Origin: Mycobacterium sp. | GTDB taxonomy: Bacteria > Actinomycetota > Actinomycetes > Mycobacteriales > Mycobacteriaceae | Assembly: GCA_020438845.1 (NCBI GenBank) | Contig: JAGQTV010000045.1 | Coordinates: 16,235 to 80,234 of the forward strand | Direction: 5' to 3' | DNA: 64,000 nucleotides | Shown: positions 4,643 to 39,435 of the stretch, in pieces | How positions within the stretch are numbered: position 1 is the first letter of the stretch | How the letters are laid out: the number at the start of each line of letters is the position of its first letter | Position numbers and translations under genes: made by a program | The notes under the pieces: model-generated | What the model was told of the DNA's origin: nothing | The model's input: the letters and a program-made list of their open reading frames with translations, nothing else | Databases searched by the model: none

Positions 4643-5592
4643 GGTTCGCACTCAGCCGCGAGCAGTACGACTTCGCCGCCAGTATCGACGCGGCGCTGGG
4701 GGCCGCCGACGTTCCCGGCGTGGTTCGCGCCTGGGCCAAGGGTGACACGACTCGTGGACGGGGGCTGTGGAAGTCATTGGCCGACCTCGGCGTGACAGCA
4801 CTGGCCGTTCCGGAGGAAGTTGGTGGCATCGGCGCACATCCGGTGGATCTTGTCGTGGCATGCGAAGCCCTCGGCCGCTGGTGCGTCCCCGGACCGGTCA
4901 CGGAATCTCTTGCGGTGGCTCCGGTTCTGCTGGCCGGTGACCGGCGCAATGCGGTGCTTGCCGCCGGCGATGTGGTGGCCACCGTGGCGATGCCACCGGG
5001 CGTTCCGCGTGCGGTCGACGCCCATTTCGCCGACCTGATACTTCTCACGGACGACAACGCCGTCCGGGCGGCGAAACCCGGCTCGGAGTTCGAGTCCGTC
5101 GATCCAGCCAGGAAACTGTTCGACGTATCGGCCTCTGGGCCGTCTCAGAGTGCTGATGTAGCCCGCGCCTACGAGTTCGGCGTCCTGGCCACTGCCGCAC
5201 AGCTCGTCGGTGCCGCCCAAACGATGCTGGACAAGTCCGTGGCTTACGCCAAACAGCGCTCCCAGTTCGGTCACGTGATCGGCGGCTATCAGGCGATCAA
5301 ACACAAACTGGCCGATGTGCACATCGCGGTGGACTTGGCTCGTCCTCTGGTCTACGGCGCTGCGCTGTCCCTGGCCGCCGACTCACCACACACCGAACGT
5401 GACGTCAGTGCGGCCAAGTCGGCAGCGTCCGAGGCCGCCCTGCTCTCGGCACGGGCGGCATTGCAGACCCATGGTGCGATCGGCTACACAGCAGAACATG
5501 ATCTTTCCCAGTGGCTGCTCCGGGTCCAGGCGCTGTATTCGGCGTGGGGTGATCCGACCAGCCACCGAAACAGGGTTCTGGAGATGCTGTGA
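4639..5592 (+). CDS. fadE32: Acyl-CoA dehydrogenase FadE32
   Basis: Start MRFALSREQ at the ATGA overlap; YAKQRSQFG...YQAIKHKLAD and LQTHGAIGYT motifs; short ACAD partner subunit. Confidence 0.88.
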   Translation: MRFALSREQYDFAASIDAALGAADVPGVVRAWAKGDTTRGRGLWKSLADLGVTALAVPEEVGGIGAHPVDLVVACEALGRWCVPGPVTESLAVAPVLLAGDRRNAVLAAGDVVATVAMPPGVPRAVDAHFADLILLTDDNAVRAAKPGSEFESVDPARKLFDVSASGPSQSADVARAYEFGVLATAAQLVGAAQTMLDKSVAYAKQRSQFGHVIGGYQAIKHKLADVHIAVDLARPLVYGAALSLAADSPHTERDVSAAKSAASEAALLSARAALQTHGAIGYTAEHDLSQWLLRVQALYSAWGDPTSHRNRVLEML

Positions 5593-33015: not shown

Positions 33016-33714
<699 letters not shown>

Positions 33715-33724
33715 CTACTACTGT

Positions 33725-33761
33725 GCATAGTTGAACCGCGGAAGGCATAGTCGAACCGCGG
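33725..33761. repeat. 17-bp direct repeat, 20-bp period, upstream of lpqE
   Basis: GCATAGTTGAACCGCGG-AAG-GCATAGTCGAACCGCGG. Confidence 0.8.
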
Positions 33762-33802
33762 TGGCTTCACCGTTCCGACCGCAAGGCCCTCAGGAGGCTA
33801 CT

Positions 33803-34324
33803 GTGAACCGCTTGACGAACCGCCTCGTCGCTGCGACCGCCGGACTGGCAGCGTGCGGGTTGCTGATCACCGGTTGCGGATCGGGGCAGATCTCCCAGAC
33901 CGCCGATCAGGAATCGGCTGTGAACGGGATGTCGGCGAACGTCAAGTCCATCGCACTGCGCAACGTCCACCTGCAGGCGACCCAGACCAGTGACTTCCTG
34001 CAGCCGGGCCGGATCGTGCCGCTGCTCTTCGTGGCTGCCAACGATTCCGCCGACGTGAACGACAAACTGGTCGGCATCACCTCTGAGTTCGGCAAGGTGG
34101 CCCTGACCGGTGACACGAGCATCCCGGCCGGTGGCGCGCTGGTTGCCGGAGCCGGTGAGGGAGCCGCCCAGGCGATGGGGGCCGCGACGCCCGTGACGGC
34201 GTTGGTGACGTTGACCGACGAGGTCACCAACGGTTTGGCGTACAACTTCACCTTCGACTTCGAGAAGGCCGGGAAGACCACCGTCGCGGTTCCGATCGCG
34301 GCCGGCGAGCCCACGAAGAGCTAA
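33803..34324 (+). CDS. lpqE: Lipoprotein LpqE
   Basis: RBS CAGGAGG then GTG at 33803; lipobox ITGC-GSGQISQTA..ESAVNG; divergent from carD as in Rv3584. Confidence 0.85.
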   Translation: MNRLTNRLVAATAGLAACGLLITGCGSGQISQTADQESAVNGMSANVKSIALRNVHLQATQTSDFLQPGRIVPLLFVAANDSADVNDKLVGITSEFGKVALTGDTSIPAGGALVAGAGEGAAQAMGAATPVTALVTLTDEVTNGLAYNFTFDFEKAGKTTVAVPIAAGEPTKS

Positions 34325-34382: not shown

Positions 34383-35324
34383 TCACGGCGCAGCCAAGGC
34401 TTCCTTGACGTCCACCCGTAGGCCGGTCTCCCGTTCGGCGACCTGCCACAGGGCCGCAACAGCGGCATTGCTACCGGGCCGGATCAGCGGCTTGAGGACC
34501 GGGGGACCGTTGGTCACAAACAGTGGCCCGTAAAACCCGCCGCCGGGCGCCTTCGGATCGACTGCAGCACGCAACTGGCTGAGCGCTCCATAATCGGTCG
34601 ACATTCCCGCCGCCTTGGTCCACCTCTCGAAAAAGTTACTGAGACGAGCGGCCCCGCCGTGTGCTTGGGCCGTGGTGGTCTGCAGATCGGAGTTCGTCAT
34701 TCCCGGCTGGGCGGACAGAGCCTTGGCATTCACTCCGGCCTGATCGAATTGGGCTTGCAGGCCGACGGCGAGGTGGCGCATCGCCAACTTGGTTTGGCCG
34801 TACATGCGCCACTCCTCGAAGTTCTCGCGCATGTGCGGGTCAGCAGGGTTGATCGCACGACCCATGTGCTGGGCGGTGCTCGACAGGGTCACCACTCGCG
34901 CACCAGGCGTCGCGACCACGATGGGCAGCAGATGTGCGATCAGAGCCCAGTGACCGAGCACGTTGATGCCCATCTGGGTATCGAAACCGTCCACTGTCGT
35001 GCCCTGCGGCATGGCCATCACGCCGGCGTTGCACATCAGGATGTCGATGCGGTCATGCGTGGCCGCGATCGCCTCGGCGGCGGCCTTGACTGAAGCCAGC
35101 GAGCCGAGATCGAGTTCCACGATCTCCAGCGATGCCTGCGGGTGAGCGGCGAGGATCTCCTGACGCGCATCGGCGGCCTTGGCCTGGTTGCGGACCGCCA
35201 TCACCACATGAGCGCCGTGACCGGCCAGTTCCTTGGCGGACGCGAGCCCGAGCCCGCCGTTGGCGCCGGTGACAACGGCAACCTTTCCGTGCAGATCCGG
35301 GATATCCTTCGTCGACCAGCTCAT
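34383..35324 (-). CDS. Retinol-dehydrogenase-like short-chain oxidoreductase
   Basis: MSWSTKDIPDLHGKVAVVTGANGGLG, NAGVMA and YGQTK motifs. Confidence 0.85.
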   Translation of the reverse strand: MSWSTKDIPDLHGKVAVVTGANGGLGLASAKELAGHGAHVVMAVRNQAKAADARQEILAAHPQASLEIVELDLGSLASVKAAAEAIAATHDRIDILMCNAGVMAMPQGTTVDGFDTQMGINVLGHWALIAHLLPIVVATPGARVVTLSSTAQHMGRAINPADPHMRENFEEWRMYGQTKLAMRHLAVGLQAQFDQAGVNAKALSAQPGMTNSDLQTTTAQAHGGAARLSNFFERWTKAAGMSTDYGALSQLRAAVDPKAPGGGFYGPLFVTNGPPVLKPLIRPGSNAAVAALWQVAERETGLRVDVKEALAAP

Positions 35325-35522
35325 GGCATTCCTCAATCTTGTGGGGCCGTCGCCGACCCGGTACCGGTTGGGTGACGTGGGAAATCCTTCCCATCTGAAA
35401 CATACGGCGTCATCCCCGCCGGCGCTGTCGCAGAAATCGCCCTTTCTCCCGCACTGCACGACTTGAGAATCCGCGGGCGTCTCGTGCTTCGAACCGTGTC
35501 GGAGCCGCTAGAACGGAATCGA

Positions 35523-35544
35523 TGTCGGACCCAACGGCTAGCGT
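35523..35544 (+). promoter_or_regulatory. PafBC (RecA-NDp) DNA-damage promoter of radA
   Basis: TGTCGGAC-8 nt-TAGCGT fits tTGTCRgtg-N8-TAnnnT; 7 nt to GTG (leaderless); radA is a known member of this regulon. Confidence 0.8.
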
Positions 35545-35551
35545 CAGCCGG

Positions 35552-36958
35552 GTGGCCAAGGTTCGCTCCCAGTTTCGGTGCTCGGAATGCCGTCATGTGA
35601 TGACGAAGTGGGTCGGGCGCTGCCCGGACTGCGGCACCTGGGGCACCATCGAGGAGAACATCTTCGCTGCTGCCGCTTCAGGTCTCACACAGCGGGCTGC
35701 GGCACCATTGACGCCCGCCGTGCGAATCAGCGCGATCGATCCGGAACATACCCGCCACTTCCCTACCGGTGTCGGCGAACTCGATCGGGTGCTCGGTGGC
35801 GGGATCGTTCCTGGGTCCGTGACTCTGCTGGCCGGGGATCCCGGCATCGGCAAATCCACCCTCCTGCTCGAGGTGGCTCAGCATTGGGCCGAATCGGGCC
35901 GGCGGTCGCTGTACGTCTCGGGTGAGGAATCTGCCGGTCAGATCCGCATGCGTGCCGAACGCACAGGATGCCGGCACGACGAAGTGTTCCTGGCTGCAGA
36001 GTCGGACGCGCAGACCGTGCTGGGGCACATCGACGCCGTCAAGCCCACTCTGGTGGTCGTCGACTCGATCCAGACCATGACCGCAGCCGATGCTGACGGA
36101 GTTGCGGGCGGTGTCACCCAGGTGCGCGCGGTGACGGCGGCACTGACGGCCGCCGCGAAATCCACCGGGGTGGCGATGGTGATGGTCGGGCACGTCACCA
36201 AAGACGGGTCCATCGCCGGCCCGAGGACTTTGGAACATCTGGTCGATGTCGTTCTGCAGTTCGAAGGGGACCGGAACACCCCGATCAGAATGGTCCGCGG
36301 AGTCAAGAATCGCTTCGGCCCAGCCGATGAGGTCGGCTGCTTTCTGCTGCACGAGAACGGCATCGCGGGCGTAGCCGATCCATCCGGTCTGTTCCTCGAC
36401 CAGCGGGAGAATCCCGTTCCCGGGACAGCCGTCACGGTAACCCTCGATGGCAAGCGTCCCCTGCTCGGCGAGATTCAGGCCCTGCTGACCCCACCGCCGT
36501 ATGACAAAGCGCCGCGCCGCATCGTCGTAAGCGGTATGGACCAGTCCCGCGTCGCCATGATCACCGCGGTGTTGGAGAAGCGCGCCGGGGTACCACTCGG
36601 CATGCTCGATCTCTACCTGTCGACAGTTGGCGGGATGCGGCTCACCGATCCGTCCTCAGACCTGGCGATAGCTGCGGCGATGGCCTCCGCTGTCATCGAC
36701 CGAGCATTGCCCCCGACTCTGGTGGTGTTCGGCGAGGTGGGACTGGCCGGCGACCTGCGGCGCGTCGCCGGGATGGACCGCAGACTGGCTGAGGCCGCCC
36801 GGATGGGATTCTCCGAGGCGGTCGTCCCCGCAGGTTGTGGGAAGCCGCCCGAAGGAATCCGCGCGCTGGAGTCGGCCACCGTCAACGATGCTCTACGAGC
36901 CGTCCTTGCGCTGGCCGGGACGTCGCCGAGCATTCCAGCCGGCAAAGGCGTCCGGTAA
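35552..36958 (+). CDS. radA: DNA repair protein RadA/Sms
   Basis: C4 zinc finger CSEC...CPDC, Walker [14 protein letters not shown] motif and Lon-like C-terminus. Confidence 0.96.
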
Positions 36959-36963
36959 GGCGC

Positions 36964-37737
36964 TCAGCCTGCAGCGGCGGGGGCGGGCTCGTTATTCGTG
37001 TTTTCCTCGGTGGCGGGTCCCGGGGCCGACTCAGTGGGTGCAGATTCCTCCGACGCTGGCGGCGGGCCATCGGCGAGGGTGAACGGCACCGCGGCCGACC
37101 TCAGATTGCCCAATTGGACGACCAGGTTGTAGGTGCCGGGTCCGATCGGCTCGCGAGGCAACGGGCATTGCGGAGCAGACCCCATACCGGTCCAGGTGAC
37201 CTCTGTGGTCACCTGCTCGCCCGGCTCGAAGGTCTTGACCAGGGTTTCGTTGGAAGGCGCACAATCCAGGTTGGACCAGAGCCGATTGTTGTCCAGGGAG
37301 TAGACGTAGGCGGCCAGGACAGCGGCGCCGACGTCGCGCTTGCAGGCGACGAGGCCGATGTTGGTGACGACCATGGTGAACTTCGGCTGGTCGCCGACGA
37401 CGTATTGCGGTGCGTTGGTCACGCCCTTCACCGCCAGGTTCGAGTCCGGGCAGTCAGCGCCGGCTTGCAGTACCGGCGGCGGCTCCACGGCCGAAGTTGG
37501 AGTCGGGGTGGGCGCAGGACTTGAAGCGGCGGGGGGAAGCACCGGCGTCTTGTCCTCCGGCTGCGGGGCCTGACTGGTGTCCGTCTTCGCGGTGGTGGCG
37601 GAGTCCGAGTTGCTGAAGACAGCGATCGCAACCCCGACCACTATGGCGACGACCAGCGCCGCAATGCCAAGCGCCAATCCTCGGCGTCGCCAATAAATTT
37701 GGGACGGCAGCGGTCCATGCGGTTCGAGATCCAGCAC
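36964..37737 (-). CDS. Rv3587c-like membrane-anchored protein
   Basis: VLDLEPHGPLPSQIYWRRR, one TM segment, WSNLDCAP and WTGMGSAPQCP; synteny. Confidence 0.85.
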   Translation of the reverse strand: MLDLEPHGPLPSQIYWRRRGLALGIAALVVAIVVGVAIAVFSNSDSATTAKTDTSQAPQPEDKTPVLPPAASSPAPTPTPTSAVEPPPVLQAGADCPDSNLAVKGVTNAPQYVVGDQPKFTMVVTNIGLVACKRDVGAAVLAAYVYSLDNNRLWSNLDCAPSNETLVKTFEPGEQVTTEVTWTGMGSAPQCPLPREPIGPGTYNLVVQLGNLRSAAVPFTLADGPPPASEESAPTESAPGPATEENTNNEPAPAAAG

Positions 37738-37810: not shown

Positions 37811-38455
37811 CTAGTGCACGGCGACTTCGTCCCGTTGGGGCTCACCGATGTCACCGAGGTACTCGCGCAATACGATCCGGCCGTCGGCGAGGTGATAGGT
37901 GACACCGACGATGGCCAATTCGCCGCGCTTGACGCGGTCGGCGATCTCGACCGACCTCGACAACAGCAGGATGCCGGTCTCGATGACGTGACGGGCCTCG
38001 AACTCGTCGACCCGAGTGAGCCCGTCCCGGCGAGCCAGCATGATCGACGGCGTCACCCGCTCGACGACATCGCGGATGAAGCCGCTTGGCACCTCCCCGC
38101 AGTCGAGCGCCGCAAGTGTCGCCCCGACCGCCCCACAGCTGTCATGGCCCAGCACCACGATGAGTGGGACCTCGAGAACGCTCACCGCATATTCAATGGA
38201 GCCCAGGACCGCAGAGTCGATGACGTGGCCCGCGGTGCGGACCACGAACATGTCGCCCAAACCCTGGTCGAAGATGATCTCGGCCGCCACCCGGCTGTCG
38301 GCACAGCCGAACACCACCGCCGTTGGCTGCTGCGCGACGGCAAGACCTGCTCGGTGCTCGATGCTCTGACTGGGATGCTCCGGAGAACCGGCGACGAACC
38401 GCTCGTTACCCTCTTTGAGTGCCATCCATGCTTGGGCCGGGGTGCTTTTCGACAT
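37811..38455 (-). CDS. canB: Beta-class carbonic anhydrase
   Basis: GCADSRV and GHDSCGA Zn ligands. Confidence 0.92.
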   Translation of the reverse strand: MSKSTPAQAWMALKEGNERFVAGSPEHPSQSIEHRAGLAVAQQPTAVVFGCADSRVAAEIIFDQGLGDMFVVRTAGHVIDSAVLGSIEYAVSVLEVPLIVVLGHDSCGAVGATLAALDCGEVPSGFIRDVVERVTPSIMLARRDGLTRVDEFEARHVIETGILLLSRSVEIADRVKRGELAIVGVTYHLADGRIVLREYLGDIGEPQRDEVAVH

Positions 38456-38523
38456 GGCCAACATTGTGCACTGCTATCGCCGGGCTGGCGAGAAGTGCAG
38501 CCTAGAGGCCAAATGAGCGCCGG

Positions 38524-39435
38524 ATGAGCATCGCCGCCGATGAACTCCTCGGTTGGTACGGCCGGTCCAAGCGGGACCTGCCCTGGCGGGCTGTCGGCGT
38601 GAGCGCGTGGCAGATTCTGGTCAGCGAGTTCATGTTGCAGCAGACGCCGGTGGCGCGGGTAGTGCCGATCTGGCTGGACTGGGTAGCCCGTTGGCCGACA
38701 CCGTCTGCGACGGCGGCGGCTAGCCCTGCCGACGTGTTGCGGGCTTGGGGCAAGCTCGGCTACCCACGACGGGCCAAACGGCTGCATGAGTGCGCGACGG
38801 TGGTGGCCACCCAGTACGACGACACCGTGCCCGATGATGTCGACACCTTGCTGGGCCTGCCGGGGGTCGGGGCCTACACCGCCCGGGCGGTGGCGTGCTT
38901 CGCCTACGGCAAGTCGGTACCGGTTGTCGACACCAACGTCCGGCGGGTCGTCGCCCGAGCAGTCCACGGCCTTGCTGACGCCGGTAATCCCGCCACGGTG
39001 CGCGACCACGCCGAAGTGACCGCCCTACTACCGGAAGATGCTCTGGCGCCGGCGTTTTCTGCGGCACTGATGGAATTGGGCGCAACGGTGTGCACTGCCC
39101 GCGCCCCCAGATGCGGGGCCTGCCCGCTCACCGTGTGCGCATGGCGTGATTCCGGCTGGCCGGCCGGGGAGGCTCCGACTCGACGGGCCCAGCCCTACGC
39201 CGGCACCGACCGACAGGTCCGTGGGAAGTTGCTCGACGTCCTGCGCACCAACACCGGGCCCGTTTCACGAGCCGAACTGGATGTTGCCTGGCTGACCGAC
39301 ACCGCACAACGCGACCGCGCATTGGGCTCGCTTCTCGTCGACGGGCTCGTGGAGCAGACGATCGACGGCCGATTCGCCCTAGCAGGCGAAGGCGACGATG
39401 CGGGCCGCCAGGCCCGAGGAGAAGCCGAGCCGTAA
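38524..39435 (+). CDS. mutY: A/G-specific adenine glycosylase
   Basis: SEFMLQQT, HhH LPGVGAYTA, VDTNV and CTARAPRCGACPLTVC cluster motif. Confidence 0.95.
   Translation: MSIAADELLGWYGRSKRDLPWRAVGVSAWQILVSEFMLQQTPVARVVPIWLDWVARWPTPSATAAASPADVLRAWGKLGYPRRAKRLHECATVVATQYDDTVPDDVDTLLGLPGVGAYTARAVACFAYGKSVPVVDTNVRRVVARAVHGLADAGNPATVRDHAEVTALLPEDALAPAFSAALMELGATVCTARAPRCGACPLTVCAWRDSGWPAGEAPTRRAQPYAGTDRQVRGKLLDVLRTNTGPVSRAELDVAWLTDTAQRDRALGSLLVDGLVEQTIDGRFALAGEGDDAGRQARGEAEP

Follow-up and report, generated by a model that had tools for sequence, protein, structure and literature searches.

The window analysed here, a stretch of 64,000 nucleotides from Mycobacterium sp. (GenBank assembly GCA_020438845.1, contig JAGQTV010000045.1, positions 16,235 to 80,234; G000:C22:16235-80234 in the working set, where G000 is the window's own genome), carries an intact radA and lacks disA, the diadenylate cyclase gene that forms an operon with radA in M. 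tuberculosis and M. smegmatis. The same genome has no other recognizable diadenylate cyclase, has lost the phosphodiesterase gene cnpB and possesses only an eroded remnant of the cyclic di-AMP (c-di-AMP) riboswitch in the leader of rpfA. Judged from these sequences, it is very probable that disA was deleted in this lineage, that c-di-AMP is no longer made and that the remainder of the pathway decayed. The initial annotation of the window had put forward the absence of c-di-AMP signalling altogether as one possibility, and the empty search for diadenylate cyclase (DAC) domains, the cnpB deletion and a riboswitch score of 17 bits support it.

The empty disA site

The initial annotation had read the radA stop at 36958 and the stop of a convergent Rv3587c-like gene at 36964, with a 5-bp gap and no disA between them, and direct reading of the sequence confirms each of these points exactly:

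35552-36958, plus strand: radA (DNA repair protein RadA/Sms), TAA stop at 36956-36958; the longest open reading frame (ORF) runs from ATG 35522
36959-36963, no strand: empty disA site, a 5-bp spacer GGCGC separating the convergent stop codons
36964-37905, minus strand: Rv3587c-like membrane-protein gene, 313 amino acids (aa), stop at 36964-36966; 70–92% identity to the congeners' gene at that position

Within the window, no disA lies immediately 3′ of radA on the same strand, where the spacer leads into the convergent gene; DisA-positive relatives have disA (~1.07–1.1 kb) at this site between radA and Rv3587c. The radA loci of 34 genomes without disA at the site, 15 DAC-positive genomes and named metagenome-assembled genome (MAG) loci were compared. 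All but one of the 34 are DAC-less genome-wide, the exception being G289, with one weak DAC match elsewhere in its genome (E = 1.2e-4). The distance from the radA stop to the Rv3587c stop is 1110–1203 bp in DisA-positive congeners, with disA inside, and −4 to 88 bp in 35 DisA-less genomes, where radA converges directly on the Rv3587c-like gene; among the DisA-less genomes the distance in G082 is anomalous. The complete, DisA-positive genome G288 has a distance of 3357 bp, with ~2.2 kb of extra sequence between disA and Rv3587c. RadA itself is a full-length TIGR00416 equivalog (496 bits, cut-off 403 bits) with AAA_25, Zn ribbon and Lon_C/ChlI Pfam domains, and its zinc finger, Walker A motif (GDPGIGKST), KNRFG motif and Lon-like C-terminus are all intact in the translation.

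Search for a diadenylate cyclase

The G000 assembly comprises 4.53 Mb in 118 contigs and is estimated to be 99.8% complete and 2.4% contaminated. A six-frame hidden Markov model search with PF02457 (DAC), a check that the initial annotation had proposed, returned no match on any of the 118 contigs; as a control, the same search matched 11 of 14 control genomes. DisA from two congeners, used as tblastn queries against G000, gave nothing below E = 0.2 and no remnant. A DAC domain is present in every diadenylate cyclase known so far (DisA, CdaA, CdaS and others), and a relocated disA orthologue, as the initial annotation had allowed for, or any other DAC-domain cyclase is therefore excluded from the assembled 99.8% of the genome. 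A non-orthologous cyclase, raised in the same annotation, is made unlikely by the broken sensor RNA and the lost hydrolase gene described below.

Loss of cnpB

A search for the DHHA1 domain (PF02272) covered 36 genomes. Most of these have two matches, one in an ORF of ~900 aa, which we take to be alanyl-tRNA synthetase (AlaS) because of its length and because that enzyme is known to end in a DHHA1 domain, and one in a CnpB ORF of ~340–430 aa; both are present in every DisA-positive and every Mycolicibacter genome of the set. G000 has a single match, in a 906-aa ORF taken as AlaS, and CnpB queries from four relatives found no match in this genome. The gene order in relatives is infB-rbfA-cnpB-dinF, and on contig C75 of G000 rbfA (99666-100229, minus strand) is followed within ~40 nt by the MATE/dinF gene. 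Since only the AlaS-type DHHA1 remains and rbfA runs directly to dinF, cnpB is excised from G000 as cleanly as disA; the search for CnpB/Pde that had been suggested for this genome thus found no cnpB (Rv2837c type) between rbfA and dinF. The DHHA1 search likewise returned only the AlaS-type match in G098 and G411. A scan of all ORFs for the DHH...GGGH motif of CnpB gave one ORF, which was spurious and was set aside.

Erosion of the rpfA-leader riboswitch

A survey for ydaO riboswitches (RF00379, gathering cut-off 38 bits), also proposed initially, yielded a single element in G000, located in the rpfA leader (C20:30947-31072) and eroded to 17.2 bits (E = 0.29), below the cut-off. The match stops 7 nt short of the ATG of an Rpf-domain ORF, which is the orthologous rpfA-leader position, and can be aligned with the rpfA leaders of congeners. 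According to the Rfam and leader alignments, a deletion of ~50 nt takes out the GGGGUGAAGCC core together with one helix, so that the GGGGUGAA core and an internal helix are absent from the element; in the second conserved core, CCCGACAGCUGACC has changed to CCUGAGAGCCAACC. What the element retains is the outer helix and, from the first core, the part GCGGGGGA; rpfA still has its AGAGAGGA Shine-Dalgarno sequence and its ATG.

Riboswitch scores were compared between DisA-positive and DisA-less genomes with Mann-Whitney and Fisher tests that ignore kinship. Every DisA-positive congener with an RF00379 match has exactly one copy, scoring 45–79 bits (median, 64 bits; 46/46 above the cut-off), and one DisA-positive genome, G017 (78% complete), has no match. 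The DisA-less members of the clade to which the window belongs (defined below) have a median of 16 bits, with three of 14 above the cut-off. The lesions differ between their leaders, with large internal deletions in G374 and G307 and core substitutions in G236, G063 and G006, and the search returned zero matches in G098, G411, G217, G068 and G289. Such lineage-specific lesions are what relaxed selection after the loss of a ligand predicts. Riboswitches of 62.6 and 64.5 bits are kept in the two DisA-positive genomes nested in the same clade. Outside the family, the DAC-less genomes G038, G046 and G050, from other families of the order, have no RF00379 match, and the DAC-positive genomes of those families in the set of relatives have one to seven copies each.

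Distribution and phylogeny of the loss

A census of 401 species-representative genomes of the window's GTDB genus found the DAC domain in 355 genomes; of the 312 high-quality genomes of the genus, 28 lack it. A maximum likelihood tree of the locus was built from carD, radA, canB, mutY and Rv3587c (1441 columns), which are only five genes and are all linked to the locus. The window's clade on this tree (22 rows, support 100) holds 20 DisA-less and two DisA-positive genomes, with G098 as the sister of G000, and consists mostly of small-genome, uncultured environmental lineages, including MAGs from Lake Mendota, Loclat and other metagenomes. The survey of the clade for the same junction, another of the initial proposals, found the empty radA/Rv3587c site in 19 other sampled clade genomes, which are MAGs or drafts and of which six come from different studies.

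A second DAC-less group (13 rows, support 100) sits on a long stem. Exact RadA matches name its members G034 ([Mycobacterium] kokjensenii / Mycolicibacter sp. MU0083), G156 (Mycolicibacter virginiensis) and G160 (Mycolicibacter hiberniae), and the group is therefore the genus Mycolicibacter. Mycolicibacter and the window's clade fall in different halves of the genus tree, each beside DisA-positive genomes, and a topology forcing the two DAC-less groups together was rejected by an approximately unbiased (AU) test (ΔlnL 217, p-AU 0.002), the tested groups having been chosen after the tree was seen.

Inside the window's clade, the DisA-positive G322 and G079 are nested among DisA-less genomes, and the disA state on the locus tree needs at least five to six changes, which suggests more than one disA loss within the clade. 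A single disA loss for all 20 DisA-less members was also put to the AU test and rejected (p = 0.0098), a result that is tentative given five linked genes and a post-hoc group. On the wider scheme, the chances appear about even that c-di-AMP signalling was dismantled several times independently in this one clade of mostly small-genome aquatic and wastewater mycobacteria, each clean disA deletion being followed by a lineage-specific break of the riboswitch of rpfA and, in G000 among others, by deletion of cnpB.

Two further DisA-less genomes stand isolated among DisA-positive relatives, G082 and G179 (Mycobacterium sp. SM1). G179 has no riboswitch match; G082 (99% complete) retains a riboswitch of 74.5 bits, and because this element is still present a recent loss of disA is suggested for that genome. 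In the DisA-positive G015, disA lies in two frames (~4655-4831 of locus L095), the DAC match being in two pieces and the tblastn high-scoring segment pairs abutting at residue 61; the split reflects either a sequencing error or a frameshift that is turning the gene into a pseudogene.

The radA neighbourhood and promoter

The remaining features of the locus are the following:

33016-33678, minus strand: carD, with CarD_C and CarD_TRCF_RID domains; conserved left flank, syntenic in relatives
33731-34324, plus strand: lpqE-like gene; conserved left flank, syntenic in relatives
34383-35459, minus strand: short-chain dehydrogenase (SDR) gene, 358 aa, adh_short E = 8e-29; between lpqE and radA
35523-35544, plus strand: RecA-NDp/PafBC-type promoter motif of radA, TGTCGGAC-N8-TAGCGT, two mismatches to the pattern
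37811-38464, minus strand: canB-like gene (syntenic with Rv3588c), 70–88% identity and syntenic in all relatives; named from M. tuberculosis synteny
38524-39435, plus strand: mutY-like adenine glycosylase gene, HhH-GPD domain, TIGR01084 190 bits (below cut-off); syntenic in relatives

The order carD, lpqE, (SDR), radA, Rv3587c-like, canB, mutY is that of the relatives minus disA. The SDR insertion is confined to G000, as lpqE abuts radA in every relative compared. The Rv3587c-like protein gave zero matches against Pfam, NCBIfam and the PDB, and its C-terminal tail, encoded by 36964-37065, is rich in Pro, Ala and Glu. A weak hairpin with a T-rich tail lies within the coding region of this tail (36976-36993, plus strand), 18 nt past the radA stop. 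As a possible radA terminator, the hairpin was not significant against shuffled sequences in a terminator scan of the junction and was discarded.

The RecA-NDp/PafBC promoter pattern is tgtCGgtg-N8-TAnnnT placed just 5′ of a leaderless start. The -10 element of the radA motif ends 7 nt before GTG 35552, and the motif stands at an equal distance from the GTG in each of the 27 relatives that were inspected, DisA-positive and DisA-less alike; the initial suggestion that radA has kept a PafBC promoter is thus borne out by a predicted motif that is conserved in relatives. As ATG 35522 overlaps this conserved motif, radA probably has its start at the leaderless GTG 35552 and not at the ATG. Homologues align from residue 10–12 of the long radA ORF.

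Comparison with known systems

The genus Mycolicibacter (M. terrae clade) has been reported as wholly without disA (bioRxiv 10.1101/2025.09.16.676448); the same preprint makes no mention of riboswitches or MAGs. Like G000, Mycolicibacter is without disA, which is missing from its whole lineage, and its radA/Rv3587c junction is equally clean, the gap being −4 to 70 bp. Unlike G000, it forms a separate clade on the locus tree and retains cnpB, an AtaC-type gene and an rpfA aptamer of 37–56 bits; cnpB and AtaC-type genes were found in all nine Mycolicibacter genomes searched. The aptamer is strongly conserved in 14 DisA-less genomes, namely the 13 of the Mycolicibacter clade and the unplaced G187, in the following leaders:

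L100, L109, L112, L114, L116-L124 and L126: rpfA leaders of the 14 genomes

It has six pairs with compensatory changes, and one nucleotide of the CAGCU core is deleted in all 14 copies (CCCGAC-GCUGACC), which suggests that it is still a functional RNA with another ligand or another source of the ligand. The absence of DisA, given this retained aptamer, does not always bring loss of the RNA.

The radA-disA operon of M. tuberculosis (Rv3585-Rv3586) and M. smegmatis shares with G000 both the neighbourhood of carD, lpqE, radA, Rv3587c, canB and mutY and the RecA-NDp/PafBC-type radA promoter; G000 differs in lacking the second gene of the operon and in the added SDR gene 5′ of radA. DisA is treated as the sole cyclase of these two species, and disA is non-essential in culture. 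In obligate pathogens with massive pseudogenisation, as in G000, the synthase and the DHH-DHHA1 phosphodiesterase have been lost together. G000 is unlike those pathogens in its 4.5-Mb, free-living-type genome, its clean deletions and its intact radA; no RadA match was found in G163 and G239, which are presumed to be those pathogens. Compared with the actinobacterial ydaO riboswitch of rpfA leaders, the element of G000 is at the orthologous place but scores 17.2 bits, with one core lost and another mutated. An M. smegmatis ΔdisA mutant is a viable c-di-AMP-null strain, and in that species high c-di-AMP represses rpfA through its leader (PMC9338955).

Since DisA-less mycobacteria are described in the preprint and disA is dispensable in culture, G000 adds a well-documented case to a kind of biology that was already known. 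What is new is an uncultured environmental clade in which disA loss is common and possibly recurrent, together with the co-deletion of cnpB in G000 and the lineage-specific erosion of the rpfA riboswitch.

Proposed explanation and alternatives

In the proposed course of events, the lineage of G000 would have lost disA from its radA-disA operon through a deletion that removed almost exactly that one gene. As the genome has no other DAC-domain enzyme, the cell most likely produces no c-di-AMP, and the rest of the pathway, left purposeless, would have decayed. The DHH-DHHA1 phosphodiesterase encoded by cnpB would have become dispensable, its gene being excised between rbfA and dinF, and the c-di-AMP OFF-riboswitch of rpfA would have lost ~50 nt including the GGGGUGAAGCC core and accumulated mutations in the CCCGACAGCUGACC core. 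With its Shine-Dalgarno sequence and ATG kept, rpfA may now be expressed constitutively, free of the c-di-AMP brake, and RadA, intact under a PafBC-type leaderless promoter, may act in recombination without its DisA partner. The order of these steps is the likely one on the evidence of the sequences compared.

Three observations weigh against this explanation. The assembly is in 118 contigs with 2.4% contamination, such that a gene on unassembled DNA could have escaped the searches; a full-length PF01663 (AtaC-type) protein is kept outside the window (C91:76474-77673); and Mycolicibacter, without any DAC, yet has a well-conserved aptamer. Fragmentation and contamination would be expected to favour an assembly or binning artefact, with disA, and cnpB with it, real and either collapsed or left out of the MAG. 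That account can hardly be credited, as each of the two empty sites is internal to a contig and flanked by conserved syntenic genes, the radA/Rv3587c junction recurs in the 19 other clade genomes and in complete isolate genomes of Mycolicibacter, and an assembler cannot produce a coordinated decay of the riboswitch. The clean junction of Mycolicibacter, with its similar gaps of −4 to 70 bp, and the placement of both groups within one GTDB genus would fit a single ancient deletion shared with that genus (the Terrae clade), with nothing separate in the lineage of G000. This is very improbable, because the locus tree separates the groups with support of 100 each and a p-AU of 0.002 (from genes flanking the locus only), and because Mycolicibacter retains cnpB, AtaC and the 37–56-bit aptamer that G000 does not share in that state.

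The AtaC-type protein (PF01663 match of 107.9 bits at C91:76660-77622) instead bears on the continued use of c-di-AMP or a related dinucleotide, which might be made by a non-DAC enzyme (e.g., a cyclase of the CD-NTase type) or imported from neighbouring cells and then be broken down by the AtaC-like phosphodiesterase. The constrained aptamer, cnpB and AtaC genes that Mycolicibacter holds without DisA point in the same direction, hinting at selection on pathway parts that does not depend on DisA. Such use is improbable in G000, however, where the conserved cores of the sensor RNA are disrupted, cnpB is deleted and the DAC domain common to every known diadenylate cyclase is lacking. Nor does the protein itself argue strongly for it: PF01663 enzymes act on many different substrates, NCBIfam offers no specific model for this one, and its identity to the AtaC-type proteins from G141 and from Mycolicibacter is only 38–42%. 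Because of this identity of ~40% to other mycobacterial AtaC-type proteins, the gene may have been acquired or may be a paralogue, and it is absent from the other sampled clade members, including G322 and G079. The protein is treated as a putative phosphodiesterase and is not counted as evidence for c-di-AMP. Deletion of disA followed by decay of the pathway is retained as the best explanation for G000.

Implications

Accounts of c-di-AMP in Gram-positive bacteria often present it as near-universal and quasi-essential, and one recent survey judged disA to be "under strong purifying selection" in mycobacteria. G000 and its clade show that a Mycobacterium of free-living type can shed synthase, hydrolase and sensor RNA together, and the short list of DisA-less mycobacteria gains an uncultured environmental lineage. 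The host STING response, mentioned in the initial annotation, is irrelevant for an environmental MAG. The clade supplies matched DisA-positive and DisA-less relatives for the role of c-di-AMP outside a host, both in the control of rpfA and resuscitation and in the partnership with RadA. Its rpfA leaders provide clear examples of riboswitch pseudogenisation after ligand loss, and the constrained aptamer of Mycolicibacter in the absence of a DAC is a more puzzling by-product that may be more interesting than the case of G000. Should the repeated, independent dismantling within the clade hold true, it would constitute a replicated natural experiment showing that these mycobacteria can do without the whole module in their niche, or are better off without it, along with a time series of riboswitch decay.

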